A stretch of 31,432 nucleotides of DNA from Anaerolineaceae bacterium (GTDB lineage Bacteria; Chloroflexota; Anaerolineae; Anaerolineales; Villigracilaceae), in the NCBI GenBank assembly GCA_009885945.1, contig VFJR01000071.1, forward strand, positions 1-31,432, written 5' to 3'. Under the pieces are notes generated by a model. The model was not told the origin of the DNA. It did no database searches and saw only the letters and a program-made list of their open reading frames with translations. Made by a program: the position numbers and the translations under genes. Positions 5,317-20,400 of the stretch are shown one piece after another; the first letter of the stretch is position 1; each line of letters starts with the position of its first letter.

Positions 5317-6123
5317 ATGGCCCTTCGTGGCAACTTAAGAGATTTTACAATTACCCAATTGCTTAACTTGATCAATTTGGCTGGTAAAACAGGCACATTG
5401 ATTTTAGAAGGTCCCGCTGAGCAGGCGCATGTTTCTTTTCGCGAGGGCAAATTAGCATATGCGCGTATTGGTCAGGACGATGGCAGTTTGGCAAGTATTT
5501 TACATAAAGCCAACAAGTTGAATGCAAATCAATACCGCGCCATCGCAGACCGAGCTGGTCAAATGACTGATAAGGAACTTGGTCTCTTGTTAATTAATGC
5601 GGGCTATGTTTCACAAGATGATATTCTTCTCAATCTACAATCCCATTTTTCAGATGTAATTAGACGTTTATTTACCTGGGTTGAGGGTTTTTTCCGTTTT
5701 GAAGCAGAGATCATGCCTCCTGAAGATCGCATCAATGTGCGGCTGGATCTCGAAAATATTATTATTGAAGGCTCTCGTGAATTGCGTGAGCTTGAACAAC
5801 TTAAAGATGAAATTCCCAGCCTGGATATGGCATTGAAATTCACAGACCGCCCGATGAAGCACGTCAATTTGAGCGTAGAAGAGTGGCGCGTTGTTTCATT
5901 TATAAACCCAAAGAACACAATGAAGCAGATTGCGCAGACTAATAAAATGTCTGAATTGGAAGTTCGGCGCATTGTCTACGGTCTTTTGCAAGCTGGTTTG
6001 GTTGAGATGGTAAGGCCTGAAGGGGTAGTGGTTCAACAAAATCCCAAGACCTATCCAACTCAGGATAAAGAAGAACAAAAAACGCTGATCAATAAGTTGA
6101 TCGGGCGCATTCGCACCATGTAA
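5317..6123 (+). CDS. DUF4388-type protein (N-terminal DUF4388/PATAN-like domain plus C-terminal wHTH-like domain), probable partner/regulator of the downstream GTPase
   Basis: N-terminus 'LRGNLRDFTITQLLNLINLAGKTGTLIL' is the characteristic DUF4388 opening. C-terminal 'NLSVEEWRVVSFINPKNTMKQIAQTNKMSELEVRRIVYGLLQAGLVEMV' resembles the family's second domain. SD AGAGG 7 nt upstream. Family assignment is from memory, not a search. Confidence 0.5.
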   Translation: MALRGNLRDFTITQLLNLINLAGKTGTLILEGPAEQAHVSFREGKLAYARIGQDDGSLASILHKANKLNANQYRAIADRAGQMTDKELGLLLINAGYVSQDDILLNLQSHFSDVIRRLFTWVEGFFRFEAEIMPPEDRINVRLDLENIIIEGSRELRELEQLKDEIPSLDMALKFTDRPMKHVNLSVEEWRVVSFINPKNTMKQIAQTNKMSELEVRRIVYGLLQAGLVEMVRPEGVVVQQNPKTYPTQDKEEQKTLINKLIGRIRTM

Positions 6124-6147: not shown

Positions 6148-6687
6148 ATGCAAACAGTAAAAATGGTGGTAACAGGTCCGTTCAGTGCCGGCAAGACTCA
6201 ATTTATTCAGTCTGTCAGTGAAATTGATGTAGTTGCAACAGAGCGTAAAATTTCATCCGAAGAAGAACGTGCAGTTAAGTCGGCGACCACTGTCGCAATG
6301 GACTTTGGGCGTATCACAGTGGATGAAGATCTTGTTCTTTATTTATTTGGTACTCCTGGGCAAAAAAGATTTGATTTTATGTGGGAAATTCTTTCTGAGG
6401 GCATGTTAGGGTTTATTGTGATGGTTGATAGTACCCGCCCTGAGACTTTCCGCGAAGCCCGTTCAATTTTAGAGACTTTCCGCGCATATGCTCCCACTCC
6501 TTTTGTGGTTGCCGCTAATAAGCAGGATATGCCAGAAGCTTGGGATATGGAAGATATTCGCCATGCTTTACGGCTTGATGCTGAAACAAAGCTGTTACCC
6601 TGCGTAGCAACCAATCGTGATACCGTCAAGACAGTTCTTTTGGAACTGCTTTTCAGCATCATGCAGGAAATGGAGTCCGGAAAATAG
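6148..6687 (+). CDS. Small Ras-like GTPase of the MglA/CvnD ('conservon' ATP/GTP-binding protein, COG2229) family
   Basis: P-loop 'GPFSAGKT'. 'TTVAMDFGRITVDEDLVLYLFGTPGQKRFDFMWEILSEGMLGFIVMVDSTR' closely matches the CvnD/MglA signature (TTVAMDFGR ... LYLFGTPGQ.RF.FMW). NKxD motif 'AANKQD'. SD GGAAGGAA upstream. Confidence 0.75.
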   Translation: MQTVKMVVTGPFSAGKTQFIQSVSEIDVVATERKISSEEERAVKSATTVAMDFGRITVDEDLVLYLFGTPGQKRFDFMWEILSEGMLGFIVMVDSTRPETFREARSILETFRAYAPTPFVVAANKQDMPEAWDMEDIRHALRLDAETKLLPCVATNRDTVKTVLLELLFSIMQEMESGK

Positions 6688-6709
6688 GCTATCCGGTGAA
6701 ACAGTTTTC

Positions 6710-7507
6710 GTGTCATCAATTACAACAGATCAGGGAATAGTTCATTATGAGGTATACGGGCGCGGGCGTCCCGTAATTCTTTTGCATGGTTGGCTTGGGT
6801 CGTGGGGGTTATGGCAGGAGACGATGGCATATTTGGGTGCTTTTTACCGCACATACGCCATGGATTTTTGTGGGTTTGGTGAATCTGGAAAGAAACGTGA
6901 AACCTATGCAGTACAGGATTTTGTCGGCTTAGTTAACCAATTCATGGAGCAATTGGGTATTGTGCATGCGCCATTGGTGGGGCATAGCATGGGTGGCACT
7001 GTTAGTTTGTCGGTGGCAATAAAACATCCCGAGCGGGTTAGCAAAGTTGTGGTGGTTGGATCGCCCATTGTTGGTTCGTCGCTTGCGCCATTGTTGAAGG
7101 TCTCAGGGTATCGGCCAGTTGCTTTTTTACTCTTTAATATGATGGGACCCTTTCGCGCCTTTATGAAATATTATTATTCACGCGCTATTTGCAGTGACCC
7201 TCGTTTTCCTGCAATGATGGACCGCGACCTTTCTCGTACGACAGTTGAATCGTTTCTGCTCTCTATTTCTTCACTTCGCCGTACCGATTTGCGCCCAATG
7301 TTGGATCAAATAAAAGTTCCTGCGCTCGGAATGTATGGTCATAAAGATAAAATTGTGCACCCGTTGCAATGGCAGCCTATGCAACAGGGAATTGTTGGGT
7401 CTAGAATTGAGCATTTCCCAAATGCTGGTCATTTTCCTATGCTGGAAGAACCTGCTGAATTTAGCAAAAGATTAAAAGCGTTTTTAGACGAGCCATTGCC
7501 AGCATAA
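6710..7507 (+). CDS. Alpha/beta-fold hydrolase with an intact catalytic triad (paralog of 18804..19592)
   Basis: Oxyanion 'LLHGW', nucleophile elbow 'GHSMGG' (Ser codon 6986-6988), acid 'GHKDKIVHP', His 'NAGHFPMLEEP'. Start set at in-frame GTG 6710 (VSSITTDQGIVHYEV...) by analogy to the paralog's N-terminus 'MSAILIDGSIVHYEA'. The ORF-track start at 6617 overlaps the GTPase gene and is unlikely. Confidence 0.65.
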   Translation: MSSITTDQGIVHYEVYGRGRPVILLHGWLGSWGLWQETMAYLGAFYRTYAMDFCGFGESGKKRETYAVQDFVGLVNQFMEQLGIVHAPLVGHSMGGTVSLSVAIKHPERVSKVVVVGSPIVGSSLAPLLKVSGYRPVAFLLFNMMGPFRAFMKYYYSRAICSDPRFPAMMDRDLSRTTVESFLLSISSLRRTDLRPMLDQIKVPALGMYGHKDKIVHPLQWQPMQQGIVGSRIEHFPNAGHFPMLEEPAEFSKRLKAFLDEPLPA

Positions 7508-7539
7508 TAGGGTACTGTACCTCGTATATAAGCACTCAA

Positions 7540-7572
7540 CGCGATGGATAAGAGAATATCCTCGCGTTTTTC
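7540..7572 (+). terminator. Rho-independent terminator after the hydrolase gene: CGCGA(T)GGATA-agagaa-TATCCTCGCG followed by TTTTT
   Basis: Inverted repeat plus T-tract read directly, about 30 nt after the 7507 stop. Confidence 0.55.
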
Positions 7573-7665
7573 ATCTAAATACCACTACAATTCTTTTGTA
7601 AGACCTGTAAACTCACCAAGCAGAAACCGTATTTAATCCTTGCAATCATTTATAATTGAAACAAT

Positions 7666-8937
7666 ATGCTGAAAATTATTTTACACGCTCCAAACAATGT
7701 GCATCCGTTTTGTGAGCCGGCCCGCGATTTACGCATTCAAAACTCTCCCCTTTGGCTTCATCAGCGTAATGTACTCACTCCTTATGTGACTCGTGAAGTG
7801 GAAGTGAAGCCAGGGGTACCTTTTAATCCCACCCGTGAACCATCCATTGTATATCGTGACAATTTATTCTTTGATCAGGAATACATTGATGCCTTTATCA
7901 GTGAGGCAAAAAGAAAAAATCGTGCTGTTCGTGCGGCTTTTTCTGCAGATGACCCAGCTTTTCGGGAACATGCGCTTCCTCTTTCATCATCCTATACACC
8001 TGCTGGTAGTTTATATCTTGCTGATTTATGGTACTACCCAAATGGCCCTGTAGCAGATGTAGAACCTCTGGTGATAGATTTGCAATCCCGTGAAATTGGG
8101 TATTATCATGTGCCGACCTATATGGCTGAGCAAACAGGGGATCTGTTATTTCAGGTACCTCTTCGTTCTTTGATTGCAATTGACTCTTGGGTACATATCT
8201 TCGTTGCTGATATGATTTTTAGTCAATTTGGTCGAGGAGCGCGCTTTGAGAAGCAGCTGCATGAAGACCTGGCTTTTAAGTTAAAAATTATTGGTACTGC
8301 TATTTATGAGGGCAGGCAGGTCTTGGATTGTTCAGAATTAGTACAGATGGGCAAAAATTGCGTGATTGATCCTAGCGCTGTTATCCATGGACCTACGATC
8401 ATTGGAGACAATGTCAATATCGGCGCTGGAACTGTGATTGAGAACTCGATCATTGGCAATAATGTGAATATTTCACAGGGTTGCCAAATTATGCTTTCAG
8501 TTGTGGGGGATGGGGCTTTCCTACCATTTCGTGCCGCTTTGTTTATGACCACAGTGATGGACCATAGCATGGTGGCGCAAAATACATGTTTGCAGATGTG
8601 CGTGATTGGACGTAATACATTTATTGGCGCTGGTACAACCTTCACAGATTACAATATTATCCCCGCACCGCTTCGCGCACTTTCGGGAGATGGCTCTTTG
8701 CGCCCGTCCAATCGTCCGGTATTGGGCGGCTGCGTTGGTCATAATTGCCGCTTAGGCTCTGGCATGATTGTTTATCCGGCGCGCACCATTGAATCAGATG
8801 TAGTGCTGGCTGCATCGCAGGAACGACGTGTGATTAGCAAGGATATTCGTTTTGAAGATAGTGATCATCATCGCATGAAGCTTTCTCATTTGCATCAGAC
8901 CCCTTATCATAAAAAGAAAGAAGAAGAGTCCTGGTAA
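7666..8937 (+). CDS. Left-handed beta-helix (hexapeptide-repeat) protein with an N-terminal domain of uncertain identity, possibly a degenerate sugar-nucleotidyltransferase-like fold lacking the Gly-rich loop
   Basis: Hexapeptide repeats 'IGDNVNIGAGTVIENSIIGNNVNISQGCQIM' and 'IGRNTFIGAGTTF'. N-terminus 'LKIILHAPNNVHPFCEP...PLWLHQRNVL' only loosely resembles the NTP-transferase 'KAIILAGGxGTRL...PLL' and has no GxGTRL. No SD before the ATG; a TATAAT sits 9 nt upstream, so the transcript may be leaderless. Confidence 0.45.
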   Translation: MLKIILHAPNNVHPFCEPARDLRIQNSPLWLHQRNVLTPYVTREVEVKPGVPFNPTREPSIVYRDNLFFDQEYIDAFISEAKRKNRAVRAAFSADDPAFREHALPLSSSYTPAGSLYLADLWYYPNGPVADVEPLVIDLQSREIGYYHVPTYMAEQTGDLLFQVPLRSLIAIDSWVHIFVADMIFSQFGRGARFEKQLHEDLAFKLKIIGTAIYEGRQVLDCSELVQMGKNCVIDPSAVIHGPTIIGDNVNIGAGTVIENSIIGNNVNISQGCQIMLSVVGDGAFLPFRAALFMTTVMDHSMVAQNTCLQMCVIGRNTFIGAGTTFTDYNIIPAPLRALSGDGSLRPSNRPVLGGCVGHNCRLGSGMIVYPARTIESDVVLAASQERRVISKDIRFEDSDHHRMKLSHLHQTPYHKKKEEESW

Positions 8938-10023
8938 ATGGACAGTTTTGCGTTCATCATACATCCAGTTGACCCCAAGCGCGATGTAAGCAGGAAGTTT
9001 CCATTTTTGGGGCGTACGTTGAGTGAAAAACAGATTGATTTTTTCTCAACTTTTTTCCCACCCGTATATATTTCTGAGATTAACGGCATTACGTCGAAGG
9101 CGACTGGAAAAGAGATTAAAGGTTGGTTTATTGCATGTCCGTTTACGCCGCGCCGTATGATGGAGTTGCGCGAGCAGAGGGTATATCGTAAAATTATCCA
9201 AACTGGGCGCGTCGCTGAGAAATTAGGAGCAAACATCCTTGGCTTGGGAGCCTTCACCTCGGTTGTGGGGGATTCTGGCGTGACGATTGCAAATGCGCTG
9301 GATGTGCCTGTGACCACAGGCGATTCTTATACTGTAGCTCTTGCTGTGCAGGCAATTCGTGATGCGGCAAAGGTGATGGATATTAAGATGCAGGATGCCA
9401 CAGTAGCAGTCGTTGGCGCTACAGGTACAATTGGGCGCGTCTGTGCTGAGCTGTTGGCTGGCGAGGCGGCACGGGTTTTGCTTGTGGCCCGGGATGAGAA
9501 AAAGCTTGAAGTTTTACGTGACAGGCTCAAGCTCCATGCTCGAAGCGAATTGCAAATCAGCACGAGCATGGATGTATTATCTGAGGCTAAATTGATCCTC
9601 ACTGTGACGAGTGCAGTGCATGACGTTATCAAGCCTGAGCATTTATTGCCTGGAAGTGTTGTTTGTGATGTGGCTCGTCCTCGTGATGTTTCTGCAATGG
9701 TAGCGGCTGTGAGAGATGATATATTAGTGATTGATGGTGGCATGGTAGACGTACCAGGTCCCGTTGATTTCCACTTTAATTTTGGTTTTCCAGAAGGCAA
9801 GGCGTATGCCTGTATGGCTGAGACCATGGCGCTGGCTTTGGAAGGCAGATTTGAAGATTACACTGTGGGTAAGGATATTACACTTGCTCGTGTTCAGGAA
9901 ATTACGACCATTGCTGAAAAACATGGCTTTCGTTTGAGCGGATTTCGCTCATTTGAAAAAGAAGTAACGGAAGCACAAATTGAAACTGTGAAAAGGAATG
10001 CCCGCAAAATGCGGCGTGCATAA
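8938..10023 (+). CDS. Predicted NAD(P)-binding dehydrogenase (COG5322-like 'predicted amino-acid dehydrogenase' / shikimate-DH-like Rossmann fold)
   Basis: Rossmann motif 'VAVVGATGTIGRVCAELLA'. N-terminal 'FAFIIHPVDPKRD...FIACPFTPRRMME' is typical of COG5322 members as I recall them. The start ATG directly abuts the upstream stop (TAAATG), indicating translational coupling. Confidence 0.45.
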   Translation: MDSFAFIIHPVDPKRDVSRKFPFLGRTLSEKQIDFFSTFFPPVYISEINGITSKATGKEIKGWFIACPFTPRRMMELREQRVYRKIIQTGRVAEKLGANILGLGAFTSVVGDSGVTIANALDVPVTTGDSYTVALAVQAIRDAAKVMDIKMQDATVAVVGATGTIGRVCAELLAGEAARVLLVARDEKKLEVLRDRLKLHARSELQISTSMDVLSEAKLILTVTSAVHDVIKPEHLLPGSVVCDVARPRDVSAMVAAVRDDILVIDGGMVDVPGPVDFHFNFGFPEGKAYACMAETMALALEGRFEDYTVGKDITLARVQEITTIAEKHGFRLSGFRSFEKEVTEAQIETVKRNARKMRRA

Positions 10024-10034
10024 GGAGGCTCGTC

Positions 10035-10940
10035 ATGGCAAAAGCCCGATTGTTAGTTGTGGAAGACGATATTGATATTGCGAATATGCTTAAGATCTAC
10101 TTCTCTGGATTAGAATTTGATGTAGATGTAGCAAATCGCGGGATGGATGCTTTGGAAAAGACAAAGCATGTGATTCCTCATTTAATGGTGTTGGATATTA
10201 TGCTGCCTGATATTGACGGCTATGAAGTATGCCGTCAGTTGCGTATGAATACCCGCACTAGCCATATTCCTGTGATTTTTCTTACCCAAAAGGATGAACG
10301 CAGTGATAAGTTACAGGGTTTGGAATTAGGCGCTGATGACTATATTACAAAACCCTTTGATATTGAGGAATTAAAATTGCGCGTGACGGGTGCTATTCGC
10401 CGCGCTGAGCGTGAGAGTCTTACTGACCCGCGTTCTGGTTTACCTGCTGGGCGTTTGATTGAAGAGCAGCTGCGCCGCATTATTCGTGAGACAAATTGGG
10501 CAATGTTAGATTTGCGCTTAAATTACTTTGATGCGTTCAAAGATGTTTATGGCTTTGTCGCTGGTGATGATGTTTTACGTTTTGCTACTATGATATTAAG
10601 TGAAGTGGTAGATGAACTAGGCACGAACAAGGATTTTATTGGGCACCCAGGCGGTGATAATTTTGTAATCATTAGTACTCCTGAAGCTGCAATTACAATT
10701 CGCCAACGCCTTAAGGATCGCTTTGCGAATGAAGTGCAAACGCACTATAATTTTATCGACCGACAACAGGGATTTATCCAGGCTCCAAGAGCTGATGGGG
10801 GGGTAGATAAAGTTCCCTTTATGACCCTTTCAATTGGATTGGTATCACCGACTCAGCATTCTTTTGCTGATATTCGCGAAATTACTGAGTTAGCGGCAGA
10901 AGCCAGACGGCAGGATACACCTGCGGCTTCTATTGCCTGA
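10035..10940 (+). CDS. Response regulator: REC receiver plus GGDEF-like domain with degenerate active site GGDNF (predicted catalytically inactive diguanylate cyclase)
   Basis: REC: 'LLVVEDD', phospho-acceptor 'MVLDIMLP', 'YITKPF'. GGDEF-like: 'RSGLPAGRL', 'YGFVAGDDVLR', 'IGHPGGDNFVIIS' (GGDNF codons at 10650-10664). The I-site RxxD is replaced by TNKD. Strong SD TAAGGAGG 6 nt upstream. Confidence 0.8.
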   Translation: MAKARLLVVEDDIDIANMLKIYFSGLEFDVDVANRGMDALEKTKHVIPHLMVLDIMLPDIDGYEVCRQLRMNTRTSHIPVIFLTQKDERSDKLQGLELGADDYITKPFDIEELKLRVTGAIRRAERESLTDPRSGLPAGRLIEEQLRRIIRETNWAMLDLRLNYFDAFKDVYGFVAGDDVLRFATMILSEVVDELGTNKDFIGHPGGDNFVIISTPEAAITIRQRLKDRFANEVQTHYNFIDRQQGFIQAPRADGGVDKVPFMTLSIGLVSPTQHSFADIREITELAAEARRQDTPAASIA

Positions 10941-10957
10941 GAGGTAGTCTTCTTATC

Positions 10958-13900
10958 ATGTTAGCCGGGGTAGGCCTCGGAATTTGGCTTATTATCGCTG
11001 GACTGGCGCTTGTCTTGCTAGTCTGGTTAGTATTATGGTTGCTACCTGGGGAAAAAACTGCGAAAGTATCTGAAGCTCCAAGTTATTTGCCAGATACAGC
11101 AAATTCAATTGATGCGGTTTTGATCGTTGAACCAGGCGGGCGTGTTAATTATATGAATTCGCTCGCTCGTCACTGGTTCGATATGGCTGAAAATGATGAG
11201 CCGGATATTGAGCGTTTAACGCGCCGGGTACGTCCTGCGGATCAGTTTTTAGATGTTTGTGTTATGCCTGGTCAAAAACGTGTGACGATAGGCGGGAGGT
11301 TAATGGAAGTTACTTCTTATGAAGTACCCGGTACTTCTCCTTTAATTCTCGTAACTTTGCGTGCTATGGATTTGGGATCTGCATTAATTGGCGGGACATC
11401 GGATTCTTCTACATCTATTCTAAAGGTAGTAAAAGATTTTAGTCAGGCTGTTTCTTTGAGCCTTAGCTTGATGCATACCCTTCAAGCCGTCCTGGAAAAT
11501 ATTAGCCGTTTAACTTCGTCTGATATTCTTGAGCTTAAGTTGTGGGATACCCAGTCTGATTCGTTAATTCCTTATCGTTTTGACGATCCTAATTCACCAG
11601 CACGCGTTATTGTACGTGCTTCAGTAACTCAATTCGGAGAATTTACAAGCCAGTTACTTACTACTCGTCAGCCGGTTTTTATTGCCAGCACCGAAGCGCG
11701 CTCAAACACTGCTCCGCGCAATGCAGAAATTAAATCCATTCATTCTTATTTAGGAATCCCATTAATTGTTGGCGATAAATTGGTTGGAACATTGGAAGCA
11801 GGGCAGACGAGCGGTGGTTCATTTGGTCAGCATGACCTTGACCTTTTGTTATTGGTTTCAGGACAAGCAGCATCTGCTCTTCGAAATGCCGGACGATATG
11901 AAGAAGAGGAAAAACGCTCACTAGAATTATCCGGTTTGGCAAACCTTACTCAGGCTTTTAGTTCTATTCAAGACGTGCGGGACCTTTTTGCTAGTCTTAT
12001 CGAGAGTATTTCTCTGCTCTTCAACACAGATATTATTGGTTTCCTCCTCTTTGACGAGGACAAGAGTACTTTAGAAGGCCAAATCCCTTTTCGAGGCATT
12101 CCTGCTCATATTGTAGAAATTTTCCGCTCATCCATTCCGTCTGGCAGCAGTGCAGAGCAGGTTTTAAACAGCCGCAATTCTATCTATACCTTGGATGCAT
12201 CCAAAGACGAATCATGGCGTTTGCTTGGGTTTACCAACATTGCCATTGCTGCTAGTTTGCGGGATTGCGCCTTGATTCCTTTGGTATCTTCGAGCCGTGT
12301 TGTAGGTTATTTTCTTCTCGCACATCATCGTGGTGGTACTTCTGCTTTTACAAAAGACGAATCTCGTTTAATTGATATTGTTGCCGATCAAGTTGCGGCA
12401 ATTGTTGATAATGCCTTGCTTGTACAACATGCTCGCATTAGAAGTCAGCGATCTGATTCCTTGCGGCGTATTGCTAGTCTTTCAGCTTCTTCCGCTACAT
12501 TGAATGAAGTTCTGACATTTTCTATTCAAGAACTTGCCAACCTTTTTCAGGCAGAAGCTGGCGCTGTTTTTCTACTAAACAGTAAATCTGGCGAACTAAC
12601 GCTGGAGAAAAATTCAGCTTTTGGCGTTGATGAAAATACTAAGGAAGCTTTCAAAGTAATTTATATAGATCAGCCTCAATACCGCCAGACCGTTTCTGGC
12701 AGTCAAAGATCGTTTGTTTCCGGTAGGTTAAGCACAGATCGACGTGTTAGCCCTCCGTACCAGCAGTTAGCCGGCGTTTTGCATATGGAATCGGTGCTTT
12801 TGGTGCCTCTTGTTGCGCGTGATAAAAGTATTGGCGAATTAATGTTGGGAAATCGCCGCTCCGATTATTTCACAACCTACGATCTGCAAATTGTATCTAC
12901 TGCCGCTGGTTTGCTTGCGACAGCTATAGAAAATTCAAACTTATTGAAGCAAACAGATGATTCTTTGCGTCAAAAGGTTGATCAATTATCGTCTGCATCT
13001 GTTACTGCAAGGGAAATCAGCGCCTCGCTTGAATATGATCATCTGTTACAGATTATTTATGAAGAAGCTTTAAAGATTTCACATGCTACCTGCGGATCAG
13101 TCATCTTTTTTAAATTTAATGAGAATGATGAAATTCCTCATATAACACATTCCATAGGCTGTTTTAACTCCAAAGTTGTTACTCCTTTCGAACTTGCAGC
13201 AATCAAGCGCGGTTCTGCAATTGAAATGCCAGACTTCTTTAGCCAAATAGATTATTCCGCCCCCCACGAAAGTGTTCACTCTGCATTACTGGTTCCAATT
13301 GTTCACCATGGGAAAACGACTGGTTTAATACAGTTACATAGTAGCCAGGCTGCTTTTTTCAAATCGATGATTTCTGAATCTGTTCAATCGCTTGCTTTGC
13401 AAAGCGGCATCGCTCTCGAAAATGCGCGTCAATATAATGATGAGCGTTTGCACGTAGAAGTCTTGCGGCGCCGTGCCGAAACATTGGTTGACTTGTCTAA
13501 TGTAAGTTATTCTCTAAACCTTGAAGAACCACTTGAAGGCTCGCTGCTCTCTATTGCTCACGGCATTAGTAAAGCTACTTCTTTTCAGGTTGTCTTGATT
13601 AGTATATTTGAATCTGAAACAGGAATGTTGCGTCGTGTTACAGGTGTTGGCATTCCTCAGGATATTTTAAACGAATTACTTTCAAGAAAACAGCCCTATA
13701 GCAGTGTTCAATCCCTGCTACGCCCCGAATTTAAGATTGGGCGCACCTACTACATCCCAGCAGATCAAACACCAATAGTGCCTTCGGATGTGCACATGGT
13801 AACTTTACAATTAAGTAGTGATCAAAAAACATCGAATTCATGGTACTCAGAAGATTTTCTTCTTATTCCTCTTGAAGATGGACAAGGAAACCCCATTGGC

Positions 13901-16900
13901 TTAATCAGCCTTGATGATCCATCCAATGGTTTACGCCCGGATATGGCGACCATTTCTTCGCTCGAAGCGTTTGCAGCGCAAGCAACATTAGTGATCACTA
14001 ATGTTGCTCGAGCAAGCGATTTAAAAAATAAGGTAGATGCATTAACCGCAGGCCTGCAGCGTCAACAAAAACTATTAAGCGTTACGCAAAATGATGTTCC
14101 GATTTTGTTACGCAAGGATTTAGAACAAACTATTTCGGTACATAGCCTTGAGAGGCGTGCTCAGCGCGTCCGCGCAGGATTGCTTATTACGGAAAGTGTC
14201 AGCCGTCAACTGGATGCAAGTTCAGCGCTGATGGCGCTTGCCCGCGAAGTTCTTACCCAGTTAAACATGTCCGCGTCTATCGTAGCTGAAAGTGGGGCAG
14301 AGGGACCACGCCTTCTTCACATCCTAGGCAGTGTGCCCAAATCCACAAACGTAGACGCATTGTTTGGTCAACGCAATCCATTACGGAGTTGTTTGCAATC
14401 TGGTGAGCCTTTATTAGTAGCAACGCTTGAAGAAAATGAAGAATGGCGTGATGCGCCATTGTTAACATCTCTGCGCGCAAAAGCTTTTATTTGCCTTCCC
14501 GTCATGGTGGAAAATGTTCCAGTTGCTGCCATGCTTGCCGTCAGCCCTGAACCGCTCACTGCATTTACAGATGAAGACCGTCAAGTTTATTACCAAATTT
14601 CTCGTCAAACATCTGTTATTCTGCAGAATATTTCCCTGCTTAATGAAACTCGCAGACGTTTGCAAGAAGTGAATCTTCTGTTGGAGTTCAGTCAACATCT
14701 TAGCGGGTTAAGCCCGGAAGAAATTTTACGTTCTCTGCTTGACAGTGCCCGCCGTGTATTACATTCTGCTCACGCTGGGAATGTTCTTTTATGGGATTTT
14801 CAATCTGATCTTCTTGTTTCACGCGCTGTTTCTGGATATGCAGATAATGAAAGTTTGACTCGAATTACGTACCGTTCTGGTGAAGCTTTGCCAGGTTCTG
14901 TATATGCATCTCGCAAACCACGCAAAGTGGATGAAATTAATTTTTCCAGAGATTACAATATTTCTTCAGAGAATTTACTTCTCTATCGTCAGGCAACCGG
15001 CGGGCGCATTCCCGTATCCAGTTTGCTCGTTCCTATTATTTCTGGCGATCGAAATCTTGGTTTATTAGTTCTGGATAATTTTAATGCTACAGGCGCATTT
15101 AAGGTAGAAGATGAAACTTTACTTCTTTCTTTGACACAGCAGGTTGCGCTATCGCTCGAAAACGTTCGATTAGTACTGGCAACCCAAGAACGCGCAGGTC
15201 AATTGCAGGCATTAAACGATGTTGCCGCCTCACTTACTTCAAATTTACGTAATGATCAATTGGTTAAATCATTGCTAGATCAGCTTGCTCCGGTAATTCC
15301 ATTTGATACCGCTACATTATTGGTTCGCGAAAAAGACCGCCTTAAGGTAATGGATGTGCGCGGGTTTGAAGATAATGATCAACGCCTAGGCCTCAGTTTG
15401 GCAGTGGCGGATAGCGCTATTTTTAACGAAATGAGTCGCAAGGGACAGCCTGTTGTAGTGAGCGATGTGCGTGAGGACCCACGTTTTCCGCGGGTAGATG
15501 CTCCTCGTCTGTCATGGCTTGGCATTCCTATGATTTCAAAAGGCGAATTAGTAGGTGTGATTACGCTGGAAAAGGCGCAGGTACGTTTCTATAATAAAGA
15601 ACAGGCGCAAGTCGCTGCAACATTTGCTAGTCAGGCTGCTGTAGCGTTGGAAAATGCCACTCTTTATGAAGACAGTTTAAGTCGCGCAGCAGAACTTGAC
15701 CAACGTTCCCAGCGTTTAATGGTATTGAATCGTTTCTCGGCTTCTCTTGGCGGTTTGTTGGATGTTGATCAGATACTACAATTAACTGCTCAGGAATTAT
15801 TACAGGCTTTGACAAATGTCAAACGTATTTCAATAATTACGTTTGAAGGCGAAAAAGCAATTTGGAAATTGGCATCTCCTCGCACTAATATGAAACTGCC
15901 GCGACCCCTTCCTCATGCCCCAATTTTTGATCGTTTACGTAGTTCTATGGGACTTTTCACCTCAGATAATATTGCTAATGAACCTGATCTAATGCCTTTG
16001 AAAGATATGCTGGGCCAAGACAATGCTTCTCTAATGATTGTTCCTCTCGGGGTTGCATCCAAGTTAACCGGTTTGCTATTTGCTTACACACCAGGCCAAT
16101 ATCGCTTCACTTCCACTGAAGTGGACCTAGCCCGTACTATGGTCACGCAAGCTTCGATCACGTTAGAAAATGCCCGTTTATACGAATCAAGTGTTCGTAC
16201 GGCAGAACGATTCGCTGCATTAAACGAAACTAGCTCGCAGATCAGTGCAAACCTTAATGCTGAGGAAATTTATCAAGCTGTGCATAAAGCGGCAAAACGT
16301 GTTATGCCAGTAGAATCATTTGTGATCAGTTTGTTGGATGAAGATACAAATGAAATTATCGGTGCATATTTAATAGATCATGATCAGCGTTCTCCAGCTA
16401 CGCGTGTTCCTAGATCGCAAGGCCTTACCGGTAAAATTCTTGAGAGTGGCCAACCTTTGTTAATAAGCGGAGATGAAGTAAAAGCAGCTGGTGGAATTCA
16501 ATATGGGGATGCTCCCAAATCGCCATTATCTATTATTGCTGTGCCAATGACCTTGGGAGGAAAGACCTTGGGGATGCTTTCTGCACAGAGCTATGAACCA
16601 AATATATATACTGATGATGATGTGCAAATTCTGGGTACTCTTGCAAATCAGACTATTGTTGCACTTCAAAACAGCAAACTTTTAATAGAAACTCAAACAC
16701 TAGCCGCAGAGCAAGAACGCCGTGTGGTTGAACGTACTGCACAATTACAACATGAGCAACAAAATACAGAAACATTGTTGCGCATTCTCACAGAAGTATC
16801 TTCAAGTCTTGATCTTGACCGTGCTTTGAATCGCACGCTTTCCTTACTTAATGATGCCATCGGCGCTGAACAGGGCACAATTATGCTTCTGCACGCCGAA

Positions 16901-18397
16901 GACAATCTTTTGCATTATCGTGCTGGCTATGGATACCTTTCCGAACGAGCAGATGGAGTTAATCGCACCCTTACATTAAAGGTGGGGGAAGGCTTAGCTG
17001 GATGGGTTGTACAAAACCGTGAAGCAACATTAGTCGATGATTTACATGAAGATAGTCGCTGGACACGATCTCCTAGCTCGTCACAAGATCACCGCAGCGC
17101 TTTAATTACCCCCATGTTGGTAAGTGAAGACGTTATTGGCGTTTTAATGGTTTTTCACCGTGAAGTCAGTTTCTTTAGCCCTGAAATGCTCAATTTGGTA
17201 AAGGCAATTGCAAGTCAGGTAGCTGTAGCAATAAATAATGCGCATTTATATGAATTAATTCGTGATCAAGCAGAACGTCTTGGTGTAATGCTCCGCAAGG
17301 AACAAGAGGAAGCCAGCCGTTCTCAAGCTATTCTTGAAGCTGTTGCCGATGGCGTTTTGGTAACAGGCGCAGATAACCGAATTACATTTGTTAACTACTC
17401 CATTGAACGTATCCTTGGGTTAAAAGTTGAACAAATCCTTGGGCAATCATTGGATGTGTTTGGCGGATTATTCGGCAAGACAGCTAGTGATTGGATGGAA
17501 ACGATTCGCCTTTGGTCAGAAGCGCCCGCATCCTATCAAACGGGTGATTCCTATGCGGAACAGATCGAACTTGAAAATGGGCATATAGCGTTGGTCCATC
17601 TGGCGCCTGTTATTTTACAAAACGATTTCCTTGGCACTGTTTCCATCTTTCGTGATATTACTCATGAAGTTGAGGTGGATCGTCTGAAGTCCGAATTTGT
17701 AGCAACGGTTAGCCATGAATTACGTACCCCTATGACAGCCATTAAGGGCTATGTCGAAATCTTGCTAATGGGTGCGGCTGGTGCTATTGGCGAAAACCAA
17801 GCACACTTCTTATCTATAGTAAAGAATAATATCGAACGACTTAATTCTTTAGTGGATGACTTGCTTGACATATCTCGCATCGAATCAGGTCGTGTCACTC
17901 TTACGCCGCAACCATTAGAAATGCGCGAAGTGGCAGAGGATGTAATTGCCGAGCTTTTGCGCCGTTCTCAAGAAGAGAAAAAACCAATGGCAGTATCGCT
18001 CGATGCTGAAAAGAATCTCCCGCCAGTTGTTGGTGATGTTGGACGGGTACGTCAAATACTCGGAAACCTGGTGGACAACGCCTATCATTACACCCCAGAG
18101 AATGGCACTATCCATGTTAATATTTACACAACAAACGGAAATGGCGAAAAACAGCTGCGCGTGGATGTGCAAGACAATGGTGTTGGCATTGCAGTAGAAG
18201 ACCAAGAGCGCATCTTCGATCGCTTTTATCGTGGTGAACACCCTCTTGTATTGGCTACCCCTGGAACAGGATTGGGACTCTCCATTGTCCGCCAACTTGT
18301 GGAAATGCATAATGGAAAACTTTGGATGAATAGCTCAGGCGTAGCTGGTGAAGGAAGTATCTTCTCCTTCACATTGCCAGTCTATAAAAATCAATGA
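10958..18397 (+). CDS. Giant (2479 aa) membrane-anchored sensor histidine kinase: N-terminal TM, PAS, about 11 tandem GAF domains, PAS, HisKA, HATPase_c
   Basis: TM 'GVGLGIWLIIAGLALVLLVWLVLWLL'. At least 11 repeated GAF C-terminal blocks (e.g. AALENATLYEDS, ITLENARLYESS, VAINNAHLYELI, ALQNSKLLIETQ, SLENVRLVLATQ). H-box 'EFVATVSHELRTPMTAIKGY'. N-box 'GNLVDNAYHYTPENG'. G1 'DNGVGIAVED'. G2 'GTGLGLSIVRQLVEMHNGKLW'. Single uninterrupted ORF. Confidence 0.85.
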   Translation: MLAGVGLGIWLIIAGLALVLLVWLVLWLLPGEKTAKVSEAPSYLPDTANSIDAVLIVEPGGRVNYMNSLARHWFDMAENDEPDIERLTRRVRPADQFLDVCVMPGQKRVTIGGRLMEVTSYEVPGTSPLILVTLRAMDLGSALIGGTSDSSTSILKVVKDFSQAVSLSLSLMHTLQAVLENISRLTSSDILELKLWDTQSDSLIPYRFDDPNSPARVIVRASVTQFGEFTSQLLTTRQPVFIASTEARSNTAPRNAEIKSIHSYLGIPLIVGDKLVGTLEAGQTSGGSFGQHDLDLLLLVSGQAASALRNAGRYEEEEKRSLELSGLANLTQAFSSIQDVRDLFASLIESISLLFNTDIIGFLLFDEDKSTLEGQIPFRGIPAHIVEIFRSSIPSGSSAEQVLNSRNSIYTLDASKDESWRLLGFTNIAIAASLRDCALIPLVSSSRVVGYFLLAHHRGGTSAFTKDESRLIDIVADQVAAIVDNALLVQHARIRSQRSDSLRRIASLSASSATLNEVLTFSIQELANLFQAEAGAVFLLNSKSGELTLEKNSAFGVDENTKEAFKVIYIDQPQYRQTVSGSQRSFVSGRLSTDRRVSPPYQQLAGVLHMESVLLVPLVARDKSIGELMLGNRRSDYFTTYDLQIVSTAAGLLATAIENSNLLKQTDDSLRQKVDQLSSASVTAREISASLEYDHLLQIIYEEALKISHATCGSVIFFKFNENDEIPHITHSIGCFNSKVVTPFELAAIKRGSAIEMPDFFSQIDYSAPHESVHSALLVPIVHHGKTTGLIQLHSSQAAFFKSMISESVQSLALQSGIALENARQYNDERLHVEVLRRRAETLVDLSNVSYSLNLEEPLEGSLLSIAHGISKATSFQVVLISIFESETGMLRRVTGVGIPQDILNELLSRKQPYSSVQSLLRPEFKIGRTYYIPADQTPIVPSDVHMVTLQLSSDQKTSNSWYSEDFLLIPLEDGQGNPIGLISLDDPSNGLRPDMATISSLEAFAAQATLVITNVARASDLKNKVDALTAGLQRQQKLLSVTQNDVPILLRKDLEQTISVHSLERRAQRVRAGLLITESVSRQLDASSALMALAREVLTQLNMSASIVAESGAEGPRLLHILGSVPKSTNVDALFGQRNPLRSCLQSGEPLLVATLEENEEWRDAPLLTSLRAKAFICLPVMVENVPVAAMLAVSPEPLTAFTDEDRQVYYQISRQTSVILQNISLLNETRRRLQEVNLLLEFSQHLSGLSPEEILRSLLDSARRVLHSAHAGNVLLWDFQSDLLVSRAVSGYADNESLTRITYRSGEALPGSVYASRKPRKVDEINFSRDYNISSENLLLYRQATGGRIPVSSLLVPIISGDRNLGLLVLDNFNATGAFKVEDETLLLSLTQQVALSLENVRLVLATQERAGQLQALNDVAASLTSNLRNDQLVKSLLDQLAPVIPFDTATLLVREKDRLKVMDVRGFEDNDQRLGLSLAVADSAIFNEMSRKGQPVVVSDVREDPRFPRVDAPRLSWLGIPMISKGELVGVITLEKAQVRFYNKEQAQVAATFASQAAVALENATLYEDSLSRAAELDQRSQRLMVLNRFSASLGGLLDVDQILQLTAQELLQALTNVKRISIITFEGEKAIWKLASPRTNMKLPRPLPHAPIFDRLRSSMGLFTSDNIANEPDLMPLKDMLGQDNASLMIVPLGVASKLTGLLFAYTPGQYRFTSTEVDLARTMVTQASITLENARLYESSVRTAERFAALNETSSQISANLNAEEIYQAVHKAAKRVMPVESFVISLLDEDTNEIIGAYLIDHDQRSPATRVPRSQGLTGKILESGQPLLISGDEVKAAGGIQYGDAPKSPLSIIAVPMTLGGKTLGMLSAQSYEPNIYTDDDVQILGTLANQTIVALQNSKLLIETQTLAAEQERRVVERTAQLQHEQQNTETLLRILTEVSSSLDLDRALNRTLSLLNDAIGAEQGTIMLLHAEDNLLHYRAGYGYLSERADGVNRTLTLKVGEGLAGWVVQNREATLVDDLHEDSRWTRSPSSSQDHRSALITPMLVSEDVIGVLMVFHREVSFFSPEMLNLVKAIASQVAVAINNAHLYELIRDQAERLGVMLRKEQEEASRSQAILEAVADGVLVTGADNRITFVNYSIERILGLKVEQILGQSLDVFGGLFGKTASDWMETIRLWSEAPASYQTGDSYAEQIELENGHIALVHLAPVILQNDFLGTVSIFRDITHEVEVDRLKSEFVATVSHELRTPMTAIKGYVEILLMGAAGAIGENQAHFLSIVKNNIERLNSLVDDLLDISRIESGRVTLTPQPLEMREVAEDVIAELLRRSQEEKKPMAVSLDAEKNLPPVVGDVGRVRQILGNLVDNAYHYTPENGTIHVNIYTTNGNGEKQLRVDVQDNGVGIAVEDQERIFDRFYRGEHPLVLATPGTGLGLSIVRQLVEMHNGKLWMNSSGVAGEGSIFSFTLPVYKNQ

Positions 18398-18405
18398 GGA
18401 ATTGA

Positions 18406-18780
18406 ATGGCAAAAATTTTAATAGCTGAAGATGAACCAGACATTCGTGACCTAGTGGCATTTACACTTCGATTTGCAGGACATGAAGTAGTCGCAACCTC
18501 CAATGGGGAGGATGCGTTACACTCAGCTCCCAATGTAAAACCAGATTTAATTCTTATGGATGTGCGTATGCCAAAGATGACTGGATACGAGGCTTGCCGA
18601 GCCATGAAAGCAGACCCTCAGCTAAGAGACATTCCCGTTGTATTTCTCTCTGCTAAAGGGCAAGAGAGCGAAATTCAAATAGGCATGGAAGCAGGCGCCG
18701 AAGAATATTTATTAAAACCATTTGCCCCCGATCAATTGACCGAGCGCATAAGATCCATCCTTGCTAAATACGGAAAATAA
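18406..18780 (+). CDS. Stand-alone CheY-like response-regulator receiver
   Basis: 'ILIAEDEPDIRDL', phospho-acceptor 'LILMDVRMPKMTGYE', 'YLLKPF'. 8 nt after the HK stop; SD TGAGGA. Confidence 0.85.
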   Translation: MAKILIAEDEPDIRDLVAFTLRFAGHEVVATSNGEDALHSAPNVKPDLILMDVRMPKMTGYEACRAMKADPQLRDIPVVFLSAKGQESEIQIGMEAGAEEYLLKPFAPDQLTERIRSILAKYGK

Positions 18781-18803
18781 GTACAGTTGGATAAATTGAA
18801 ACA

Positions 18804-19592
18804 ATGAGTGCCATTTTAATTGACGGATCTATCGTTCACTACGAAGCATTGGGTCGCGGCCGTCCCATTGTCTTTCTAAACGGCTGGGTTGGCTCATGGC
18901 GCTACTGGGTATCTGCCATGCAGGTTGCATCCACTTCATTTCGCGCATATGCAATAGATTTATTTGGATACGGTGACACAGCCCATGAAACCATTCGCTA
19001 CTCTCTCGACAAACAAGCAAGCCTCATTAATCGATTTATGGAAGAAATGGGTATCGGGAAAATAGCAATTGTTGGTCATGGGCTTGGCGCATTGGTTGGG
19101 TTTTCATTTATTCAACAATGGCCAAAAAGTGTAGATCGTATGATGGCAATCAATGCCCCCTTGGATTTTGTATCAGTAAGCGCGCGCTTGAAGACTGCCC
19201 CCATGACAGAATTAATAGAATGGCTTTCGAGTAAATCCCCAGAAGCAATCAGCGCCCTAGCAGACGCTTCAAAAGCAGACCTCGCGGCTGTTGCCGCTTC
19301 GATGGGCAGTTTGCAAGCTGACAACCTCTTTACTCATATTCGCACAGCGGGTATTCCCTGCCTGTTGGTACATGGACAAAATGATCCCGCCATAGTAACT
19401 CCCACCCAAGAGAGCATTGATGGAATGCCATCGCACCTGCACCAAATTACATTAGATTCTATAGGTCATTTTCCAATGATAGACAATCCATCGCAGTTTA
19501 ACCGCCTTATGACAGATTTCCTTGCTTTAGAAACTGGACTCAGCCCCAAAGAACTGCAACTCAAAGAAGAATGGAAACGCAGGGTGCGCTAA
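18804..19592 (+). CDS. Alpha/beta-hydrolase-fold protein, paralog of 6710..7507, lacking the catalytic Ser (GHGLG instead of GHSMG) and the oxyanion His (FLNGW instead of LLHGW): predicted pseudo-hydrolase
   Basis: Direct alignment with the 6710 paralog (same length to the nucleophile elbow, both at codon 93). The Gly codon 19080-19082 replaces Ser. His 'SIGHFPMIDNP' and Asp 'GQNDPAIV' are retained. Confidence 0.7.
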   Translation: MSAILIDGSIVHYEALGRGRPIVFLNGWVGSWRYWVSAMQVASTSFRAYAIDLFGYGDTAHETIRYSLDKQASLINRFMEEMGIGKIAIVGHGLGALVGFSFIQQWPKSVDRMMAINAPLDFVSVSARLKTAPMTELIEWLSSKSPEAISALADASKADLAAVAASMGSLQADNLFTHIRTAGIPCLLVHGQNDPAIVTPTQESIDGMPSHLHQITLDSIGHFPMIDNPSQFNRLMTDFLALETGLSPKELQLKEEWKRRVR

Positions 19593-19607
19593 TATAACGC
19601 GACATCT

Positions 19608-19708
19608 AATTGAACGGGGAGCCTGCCCAAGAGGCTGAGAGGAGCGTATACAACGCTCGACCCGCACTACCTGATCTGGTTAATACCAGCGGAGGGATTT
19701 TCTCGTTT
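19608..19708 (+). ncRNA. TPP (thiamine pyrophosphate, THI-box) riboswitch aptamer
   Basis: ACGGGGAGCCTGCCCAAGAGGCTGAGAGGAGCG...CGCTCGACCCGCACTACCTGATCTGGTTAATACCAGCGGAGGGA. This matches the conserved CUGAGA and ACCUGAUCUGGnUAAUnCCAGCGnAGGGA blocks and the P2/P3 helices of RF00059-type elements (from memory of the consensus). Confidence 0.85.
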
Positions 19709-19711
19709 TCT

Positions 19712-19741
19712 AAAACATCCTCTGCTTGAGGATGTTTTTTT
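19712..19741 (+). terminator. Riboswitch expression-platform intrinsic terminator: AAAACATCCTC-tgctt-GAGGATGTTTT plus TTTTTT
   Basis: 11-bp perfect stem, 5-nt loop, U-tract, read directly. About 30 nt upstream of the thiN ATG. Implies transcription-attenuation (OFF) control. Confidence 0.65.
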
Positions 19742-19770: not shown

Positions 19771-20400
19771 ATGCATCGTATACTGATCTTTGCCAATGGG
19801 GAACTGCCCAGCCTCGAAAAAGCCCGTACGCTTATCCGTGCAGGGGACTATATTATCGCGGTGGATGGGGGCATACGTCATATCCTTGCTTTGAAGCTTA
19901 TCCCCGCCGTTATTATTGGCGACCTCGACTCATTGCCTTCAGACTTTCAGCTTTCAACCTTCAGCGGAGAACTGATCCGATACCCTCGAGACAAAAATGA
20001 AACTGACCTTGAGCTTGCTATTCAACATACTCTTACATTAAACCCTGAGAAAATAATAATTATTGCTGCGCTTGGAGGTCGCCTCGATCAAACTCTGGCT
20101 AATATTTCTTTACTTGCAGACCAGCAACTCTCAGGTTTTGACATCCGATTAAACGATGGGGTGGAGGAAATTTTCATTTGCCGAGCTCAAGCCCAAGTTA
20201 TAGGAATAAGCGGCGATATTATTTCGTTAATTCCCTGGGGCAACCCAGTGACAGGCATCCAGACTACGAATCTAAAATGGGCGCTCAATAAAGAAACGCT
20301 GTTCCCTGAAAAAACACGCGGTATTAGCAATGAAATGACCGCAGATGAAGCGACTATTTCAATTGAATCAGGCTTGCTGGTAATTGTTCGCCGCTATTAA
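19771..20400 (+). CDS. thiN: Thiamine pyrophosphokinase (thiamine diphosphokinase, TPK)
   Basis: 'ILIFANGELPS', 'VIIGDLDSL' and 'IIAALGGRLDQTLANI' match the TPK catalytic-domain motifs (GDxDS, GGRxDH/Q). C-terminal thiamin-binding-like domain. Directly downstream of the TPP riboswitch. Confidence 0.75.
   Translation: MHRILIFANGELPSLEKARTLIRAGDYIIAVDGGIRHILALKLIPAVIIGDLDSLPSDFQLSTFSGELIRYPRDKNETDLELAIQHTLTLNPEKIIIIAALGGRLDQTLANISLLADQQLSGFDIRLNDGVEEIFICRAQAQVIGISGDIISLIPWGNPVTGIQTTNLKWALNKETLFPEKTRGISNEMTADEATISIESGLLVIVRRY

Follow-up and report, generated by a model that had tools for sequence, protein, structure and literature searches.

One question raised by the genome of an Anaerolineaceae bacterium is why a histidine kinase and its receivers are encoded together with proteins that have the folds of enzymes and do not carry the matching catalytic residues. 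The genes concerned are six in number, lie at positions 7666-19592 of contig VFJR01000071.1 (assembly GCA_009885945.1) and are called here, in order, g1 to g6; the whole stretch of 31,432 nucleotides (nt) that was analyzed is referred to as the window. An earlier, sequence-only reading of this DNA had seen in them a signalling operon with several degenerate enzymes, and our analysis points to a signalling device rather than a metabolic pathway. We propose, with a probability of roughly 0.55, that the cluster is a two-component module conserved across the Chloroflexota, in which the accessory proteins would be enzyme folds that are reused without catalysis. The narrower claim, that these genes form a conserved functional module containing non-catalytic enzyme folds, can be held with much greater confidence.

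The two-component genes and the conserved core

An open reading frame (ORF) check of the window found the six plus-strand genes exactly where the sequence-only reading had put them, all with intact frames and separated by gaps of 0, 11, 17, 8 and 23 nt. The domains were assigned by Pfam and NCBIfam scans, with structural modelling for the N-terminal part of g1. The first gene, g1 (7666-8937), encodes an N-terminal domain with a sugar-nucleotidyltransferase (NT) fold followed by a left-handed beta-helix (Hexapep/LbH); g2 (8938-10023) a homolog of NAD(P)-dependent acyl-thioester reductases; g3 (10035-10940) a response regulator with an intact receiver (REC) and a degenerate GGDEF domain; g4 (10958-18397) a histidine kinase of 2479 amino acids (aa); g5 (18406-18780) a single-domain CheY-like receiver; and g6 (18804-19592) an alpha/beta-hydrolase fold with Gly at its nucleophile elbow. 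The multi-GAF kinase, the CheY-like protein and the REC-GGDNF regulator are therefore as first described.

Analysis of g4 shows an N-terminal transmembrane helix followed by a PAS-like region, about 11 GAF domains (a count that comes from an iterated self-search), a PAS domain, HisKA and HATPase_c. All the boxes of a histidine kinase are present, namely SHELRTP (H), NLVDNA (N), DNGVGI (G1), FDRFYRG (F) and GTGLGL (G2), and the receivers of g3 and g5 contain the Asp, the Thr or Ser and the Lys of classical two-component proteins. In g5 the phospho-acceptor set E8-D9, D52, S82 and K104 is intact, and it is complete in 55 of 55 orthologs. As far as motifs can show, the kinase and both receivers are competent. 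The size of the kinase is not constant: in orthologous positions it spans from 715 aa with one GAF domain (locus L092, 12842-14989) to more than 3500 aa (L086, 15199 to the end), as the GAF array expands. Only some lineages (the window, L085 and L094) have the N-terminal membrane helix.

How far is this arrangement conserved? Close homologs of g1 and of g6 number in the thousands each, and every one comes from Anaerolineales-type Chloroflexota, among them Candidatus Villigracilis. A scan with one genome per GTDB species gave 529 relatives of g1, and the close-relative synteny and counts reported here come from the best 80 of these (72-80% identity, all Anaerolineales), which are samples and not censuses. 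The order g1-g2-g3-kinase-REC was found in all of the best 80 of 529 where the locus is long enough. Such close relatives alone prove little, because their outer flanks are also shared.

More distant relatives were reached through a 50%-cluster representative search, a profile search and contig look-ups. At 57% g1 identity (L084) the locus reads PATAN protein, GTPase and hydrolase (an upstream trio that is described below), g1, g2, g3, an 845-aa kinase, REC and g6, between unrelated flanks. The same order is found at 50% (L085), with inserted V4R and Rce1-like genes, and at 47% (L086) there is an additional 409-aa gene together with the longest kinase. At 45% (L094) the cluster has no g2, and at 44% (L087, a metagenome-assembled genome of Chloroflexaceae) and 43% (L092) just g1, g3, the kinase and g6 are present. 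A metagenome scan anchored on g6 gave at least 80 further loci. Wherever the neighbour could be scored, the C-terminus of a kinase lies just 5' of g6 (46/46), with 0, 1, 2 or 3 single-receiver genes between the two depending on lineage (e.g. L113, L115-L119, L122, L125), and no g6-type metagenome locus with at least 3 kb of upstream sequence was found without a kinase. Further 5' on these contigs come g3, sometimes g2, and g1, as the length of the upstream sequence permits.

The genes are thus syntenic far past close relatives, and since the arrangement recurs in every related locus long enough to display it, the cluster is far beyond chance. The unit is, however, not quite the six-gene operon that was proposed: because g1, g3, the kinase and g6 remain side by side in both Anaerolineae and Chloroflexia while the flanks change, these four are the evolutionary core, with g2 and g5 as accessory genes that come and go, and in Anaerolineae an upstream block travels with them. 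Near g1 homologs of 36% identity or less (L088-L091) no two-component genes were found. The dehydrogenases adjoining g1 in these four loci do not match g2 at E 1e-4, and an ancient g1-g2 unit was rejected on this ground.

Catalytic residues of the enzyme-like proteins

Judged from alignments of orthologs, the GGDEF fold of g3, the hydrolase fold of g6 and the NT fold, and probably also the LbH fold, of g1 are consistently without the catalytic residues of their families, and a check by alignment (for g1 with hidden Markov models, HMMs) showed that the residues read as missing in the GGDEF domain, at the g6 nucleophile and in the NT loop of g1 are truly missing.

The GGDEF domain of g3 (PF00990) scores 40.8 bits against a cutoff of 23.8, the match covering no more than positions 3-109 of the 161 in the profile, and PleD is the best match of g3 in both the PDB and NCBIfam. 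Relative to PleD, D327 is replaced by R161, D329 by N163, N335 by Lys, E370 by Asp and E371 by Asn. The active-site motif therefore reads GGDNF where PleD has GGEEF, and both the GG(D/E)EF signature and the Mg-binding Asp are lacking. The RxxD I-site is also lost; the aligned segment, GTNKDFIGHP, has no Arg, and orthologs read T[TPAS][SNT]DFIGHA. These two changes had been proposed from the window alone and are borne out in 70 orthologs from species-representative genomes, in which R161 is found in 67/70, N163 in 66/70 and D208 and N209 of the motif in 70/70. This conservation of the degenerate state means that it is selected and not decaying. A set of 31 more diverse orthologs shows drift in the motif (GGDDF, VGPDF, GGTNF, GSDNF, GNDNF, GGSDF and one GGEEF), and the position of PleD D327 is never Asp. 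In the same 31 sequences there is no variation in the receiver residues D54, T84 and K106 or in a C-terminal helix, DIRE[IL][TS]E.

The g6 protein matches Abhydrolase_1 and Abhydrolase_6 of Pfam with 64.9 and 53.7 bits, both above the cutoffs, and has 225 PDB sequence matches. Its elbow reads G-H-G93-L-G. In alignments with hydrolases of solved structure, G93 falls where epoxide hydrolases have the Asp of HDWGA and where a meta-cleavage hydrolase has the Ser of GNSMGG, and the G-x-Nu-x-G elbow of the window protein holds no Ser, Asp or Cys nucleophile. The Gly that was noted before is therefore real, but it is not a fixed Ser-to-Gly change, since the position varies: in 118 orthologs of at least 67% identity it is D in 61, G in 41, N in 15 and S in 1, and in 64 distant kinase-linked orthologs it is G in 39, A in 12, S in 8 and T in 4. 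The His of GHFPM (GHFP in the window) is found in 120/120 orthologs. The acid motif, GQNDP in the window and GxNDPA in the family, mostly keeps its Asp, with Asn in about 11 of 120, and the oxyanion motif is NG in place of HG. An Asp-nucleophile epoxide hydrolase or dehalogenase was considered as an identity for g6 and rejected: the Asp swaps with Gly and Asn among orthologs that are at least 67% identical, and the elbow residue precedes Leu and not Trp as in HDWGA.

Outside the hydrolase fold, g6 ends in a basic C-terminal tail, LKEEWKRRVR (residues 253-262). The pattern KEEW[KR]RR[VT]R is nearly invariant in close orthologs and, when applied strictly, is found in about 60% of distant ones; it persists in many Chloroflexia-type loci including L087 and L092. 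Such a tail could be a docking peptide or could serve membrane or nucleic-acid binding. In two lineages (L123, 2216-2995; L173, 10001-10795) the hydrolase that ends the kinase-receiver array is a Ser-intact GHSMGG type without the basic tail, which may be the ancestral state that gave rise to g6.

In g1, the LbH domain is the only part visible to sequence methods (Pfam, NCBIfam and PDB sequence searches). The N-terminal domain matches no Pfam NTP_transferase or NCBIfam model and was not detected against the PDB by single-sequence search or by family profiles; a fold search alone found a match. The AlphaFold2 model, built with 67 diverse homologs, is confident (pLDDT 93.5, pTM 0.92), and the search with it matched ST0452, GMPPB and eIF2B epsilon/gamma across both domains. 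The two-domain fold is that of the GlmU/ST0452-type NT plus LbH acetyltransferase. The G-x-G-x-R(L) loop and the Lys that follows it are nevertheless not found: in the HMM alignment to ST0452 the GSGER loop is shortened or replaced and the Lys is gone, with the family profile aligned to ST0452 LAAGSGERLEPITHTRPK as Lk--tgrriePFg--dpa and the window reading LHAPNNVHPFCEPARD. The absence of a Gly-rich loop, first read from the window sequence, is in this way upheld. The general base of the LbH domain, which we take to be the His in the motifs PHLSYVGD (ST0452) and GHLTYLGD (GlmU), falls, by HMM alignment and not by structure superposition, in an insertion of ST0452 without a counterpart in the family, where the window has A304-Q305-N306.

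It is probable from these alignments that g1 is a pseudoenzyme without the loop, the Lys and the general-base His. With these residues missing, g1 is better likened to the non-catalytic NT-LbH paralogs GMPPA (the regulatory paralog of GMPPB) and eIF2B gamma/epsilon, which have no nucleotidyltransferase activity, are eukaryotic, have other partners and share a sequence identity of only 13-17% with g1, than to GlmU. ST0452 and GlmU are bifunctional sugar-1-phosphate nucleotidylyltransferase-acetyltransferases and keep the loop, Lys and acetyltransferase His that g1 appears to lack. In public records orthologs of g1 are named "hypothetical", "DapH/DapD/GlmU-related" or "multidrug transporter", the last for P0132, P0150, P0172, P0237, P0402 and P0447. 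The fold gives no support to this last name and the model predicts no membrane segments; the mislabel is widespread and is corrected by the present analysis. In the 813-aa protein P0377 an NT-LbH module distantly related to g1 (25% identity) follows a family-2 glycosyltransferase (GT2) in one fused chain, a hint that the wider g1 family has ties to glycan synthesis or to the sensing of nucleotide sugars.

The fourth enzyme-like protein, g2, is of another kind. It had been described as a Rossmann dehydrogenase and the Rossmann fold stands (Shikimate_DH-type in Pfam), but its PDB matches, the PigE N-domain (4ppm, E 1e-36) and the cyanobacterial acyl-ACP reductase (AAR; 6jzq, E 1e-29), make it an AAR/PigE-N-like thioester reductase. 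The NCBIfam scores are 225 bits against a cutoff of 850 for PigE and 132 against 449.7 for AAR (TIGR04058), and since these lie far under the equivalog cutoffs g2 is a homolog and not an ortholog of either. Aligned with PigE, g2 retains GATGTIG as well as ACMAET, the motif of the catalytic Cys; ACMAET is found in 69/69 orthologs, and by its motifs g2 looks like a working thioester reductase. It is mostly deleted in three Anaerolineales species in which the other genes stay (L045, 10725-11132; L053; L072) and is absent in the deeper lineages L087, L092 and L094. Being deleted or absent in lineages that keep the rest, g2 is dispensable to the module.

The upstream block and the boundaries of the locus

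Three tightly spaced plus-strand genes lie upstream of g1. The first (5317-6123) encodes a PATAN protein (DUF4388/PatA_N; Pfam PF14332, 86.7 bits), whose residues 177-240 give just weak MarR/Rrf2 matches (E about 0.2) and whose C-terminal 90 aa or so may be a winged helix. The second (6148-6687) encodes an MglA/CvnD-like small Ras-type GTPase (Pfam ATP_bind_1, Ras and Arf) with the motifs GPFSAGKT, TPGQ and NKQD, 76-94% identical across relatives. The third (6704-7507, starting at 6704 or 6710) encodes an alpha/beta hydrolase (Abhydrolase_1, 113 bits) that is about 29% identical to its paralog g6 and keeps G-H-S-M-G-G, the Asp and the His; GHSMGG was found in 16/16 metagenomic examples of this type. 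The trio is present in about 65 of the 80 Anaerolineales loci and in L084, L085, L086 and L094, and it follows the cluster down to 45% g1 identity despite unrelated outer flanks.

Between this hydrolase and g1, 61 of the 70 Anaerolineales loci that retain the hydrolase have a further gene of about 205 aa with a V4R domain, which is a small-molecule-binding domain (e.g. L085, 9184-9831; L004, 9320-9925). A V4R gene upstream of g1 is also found in L106-L108, L119, L136 and L140. The V4R gene is missing from nine loci, one of them the window, where a 158-nt spacer (7508-7665) with a hairpin stands in its place. This plus-strand hairpin (7538-7573, stem 7538-7568) is followed by UUUUU and is a candidate intrinsic terminator or attenuator, with a dG of -15.1 kcal/mol and a z of -3.9; none of 200 shuffles folded equally well. 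No convincing sigma-70-type promoter was found directly 5' of g1.

Two terminators had been proposed to bracket the operon, and both hairpins are real, but the downstream one belongs to another element. Twelve nt past the stop codon of g6 a plus-strand thiamin pyrophosphate (TPP) riboswitch aptamer begins (19605-19714; Rfam RF00059, 69 bits against a gathering score of 54.3), followed by the terminator hairpin at 19712-19738 and a thiamin pyrophosphokinase gene (19771-20400, by Pfam match). The hairpin abuts the aptamer preceding this gene and is therefore the expression platform of the riboswitch; the whole is a boundary element outside the system. Between g6 and the riboswitch hairpin no terminator of the operon's own was found, and transcripts reading through from the operon would run into the riboswitch. 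In the relatives L001-L003 the genes on the riboswitch side also include a thiamine-type ABC transporter, which is absent from the window. Elsewhere in the window, on the minus strand (23919-26914), a 537-aa ORF without Pfam match adjoins a 461-aa SPFH/Band-7 protein.

A proposed mechanism, its rivals and related systems

How could such proteins work together? In the mechanism that we propose, the cytoplasmic PAS/GAF array of the kinase would sense intracellular ligands, and g4 would phosphorylate g3, as well as g5 where it is present, with the single receivers acting as phosphate sinks or connectors. Phosphorylated g3 may then signal by protein contact through its dead GGDEF domain. By analogy with GMPPA and eIF2B gamma/epsilon, g1 would be a small-molecule-binding regulatory subunit, and g6 may likewise be a ligand-binding subunit in which the hydrolase fold and the His are kept and the nucleophile is free to vary; each of the two would tune the kinase or be a target of phosphorylated g3. 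Because the core gene products encode no recognisable DNA-binding domain, the output is probably post-translational. In Anaerolineae its likeliest target would be the adjacent block of PATAN protein, MglA-like GTPase, active hydrolase and V4R protein, which would tie the module to polarity, motility or envelope processes, and g2 would be a lineage-specific add-on that is apparently an active thioester reductase. The most extended form of this mechanism is a phylum-specific machine in which GGDEF, alpha/beta-hydrolase and NT-LbH folds serve as non-catalytic receptors or adaptors on a GAF-array kinase and pass phosphorylation on to a polarity module of MglA-like GTPase and PATAN protein by a route that does not involve transcription. 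We offer this form only tentatively and consider it doubtful as a whole.

Several observations weigh against a reading in which enzyme folds are reused without catalysis. Chloroflexia-type loci (L087, L092) and about 7 of the 80 Anaerolineales loci do not have the link to the GTPase block. Ser is retained in eight of the 64 distant g6 orthologs and Asp is found in roughly half of the close ones, so that some g6 proteins could be active, and the invariant His could serve a nucleophile-independent catalysis. The call on the LbH residues of g1 depends on an HMM alignment and not on structure superposition. Finally, g2 looks catalytically competent and the upstream paralog has a full triad, and for this reason some chemistry is probably done by the wider cluster.

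One possible option that takes these points further is that the genes form a small operon for biosynthesis or modification, which has a two-component regulator of its own. Here the LbH protein g1 would act as an acyltransferase and g2 as a thioester reductase, with esterase roles for g6 and the upstream hydrolase; the four enzymes would make or remodel a lipid, an aldehyde or a glycan, and the kinase and regulators would control just activity or expression. The NAD(P) motif and catalytic Cys that g2 keeps in 69/69 orthologs and its homology to AAR and PigE-N fit such a pathway, as do the intact Ser-Asp-His triad of the upstream paralog, the GT2 fusion of the distant g1-like module, and the elbow Asp in about half of the close g6 orthologs, as in the epoxide hydrolases that are the best PDB matches. 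This option survives best among the alternatives and is still unlikely, as many lineages lack g2, or have it deleted, and retain everything else, six residues (G, A, S, T, D and N) occur at the nucleophile position of g6 inside one orthologous family, g1 seems to be without both sets of catalytic residues, and no regulator with a recognised DNA-binding domain is there for expression control.

A second option, which we regard as rather less probable again, is a receptor pathway for nucleotide second messengers, in which the degenerate GGDEF domain of g3 binds cyclic di-GMP (c-di-GMP), GTP or a related nucleotide and the GAF array binds cyclic nucleotides. The module would then be an effector of c-di-GMP or cyclic nucleotide monophosphates and not a pseudoenzyme scaffold. 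GAF domains are frequent cyclic-nucleotide binders, the GGDEF fold of g3 is above the Pfam threshold, and an Asp (D178/D179) matching D344 of PleD, which we take to contact the guanine base there, is conserved in 70/70 orthologs. The usual c-di-GMP site of inactive GGDEF receptors, however, is the RxxD I-site, and it is absent; the position of the metal-site Asp is R, H, G or K in orthologs and that of N335 is K or R, and the constant presence of g1 and g6 would be left unexplained. Chance juxtaposition, or decay into pseudogenes, would be suggested by the missing catalytic residues alone and is refuted by conservation and synteny: the frames are intact, g1, g3, g5 and g6 are 67-88% identical across at least 80 species, the degenerate residues are themselves conserved, and the arrangement is still there, between unrelated flanks, in loci with 43-45% g1 identity. 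A defence system was also considered and rejected; PADLOC gave no meaningful match for the cluster.

The proposed two-component module with reused enzyme folds can be compared with several known systems. In the DivK-PleD system of Caulobacter, with DivJ/PleC, a single receiver and a REC-GGDEF protein are likewise encoded together, the kinases are of the HisKA type and the output is non-transcriptional. PleD, however, has two receivers, an active GGEEF and the RxxD I-site, whereas g3 has one receiver and neither catalytic nor I-site residues; we know of no LbH or hydrolase partner in the Caulobacter system. Inactive GGDEF adaptors and receptors such as PopA and PelD resemble g3 in that the fold is kept for regulation and not for synthesis. 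Proteins of this type bind c-di-GMP through a retained RxxD I-site, unlike g3, which has no RxxD and has its own invariant DIRE[IL][TS]E motif.

The sequence-only reading had drawn a parallel between g6 and RsbQ-RsbP of Bacillus and D14/KAI2 of plants. The parallel holds for the use of the fold, as in each case a small alpha/beta hydrolase stands beside, and presumably acts on, a signalling protein that contains PAS. RsbQ and D14/KAI2 are catalytically competent receptors that keep and use the Ser-His-Asp triad, however, and the likeness fails at this point, since the g6 nucleophile is dispensable, absent or variable. Their partners are a PP2C phosphatase or an F-box protein, where the neighbours of g6 are a histidine kinase and receivers, and RsbQ is not among the best 60 of the 225 PDB sequence matches of g6.

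The upstream block resembles MglA/PATAN systems and the Streptomyces conservon, in which an MglA/CvnD-like GTPase is found by a PATAN protein or near a histidine kinase; PATAN-MglA neighbourhoods and kinase-GTPase "conservons" have been described (PMC4316618). The Streptomyces conservon consists of a kinase, Roadblock, DUF742 and GTPase and has no response regulator (PMC4316618), whereas receivers are present here and the GTPase block is missing from Chloroflexia-type loci. No Roadblock/MglB or DUF742 match was found by Pfam among the scanned window ORFs. In the literature no account of the cluster was found under GGDNF, PATAN with GTPase, or degenerate GGDEF with pseudoenzyme, and no model of Pfam, NCBIfam or PADLOC names the N-terminal domain of g1, the output domain of g3 or the g6 subfamily. 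The two-component system itself is known, while the conserved set of pseudoenzyme partners is undescribed, in agreement with the first impression that this gene combination was not a described system.

What would such a module mean for these bacteria? Chloroflexota dominate wastewater sludge, sediments and hot-spring mats, and to our knowledge almost none of their signalling pathways is characterised. Pseudoenzymes, as far as we know, are well studied in eukaryotic signalling and rarely documented as a conserved bacterial set. The cluster is a natural test case: three putative pseudoenzymes are tied to a single kinase, and this in several hundred Chloroflexota species at least. The variable nucleophile of g6 beside a Ser-intact paralog gives a direct route to asking how an enzyme turns into a receptor. 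If the link to the MglA-like GTPase holds, two-component signalling would be joined to the control of polarity or motility in filamentous Chloroflexota. The phylum-specific machine in its extended form, if true, would provide bacteria with a counterpart to the receptor-pseudoenzyme signalling of eukaryotes; it would also be the first case in Chloroflexota of a two-component system wired directly to a small GTPase switch.

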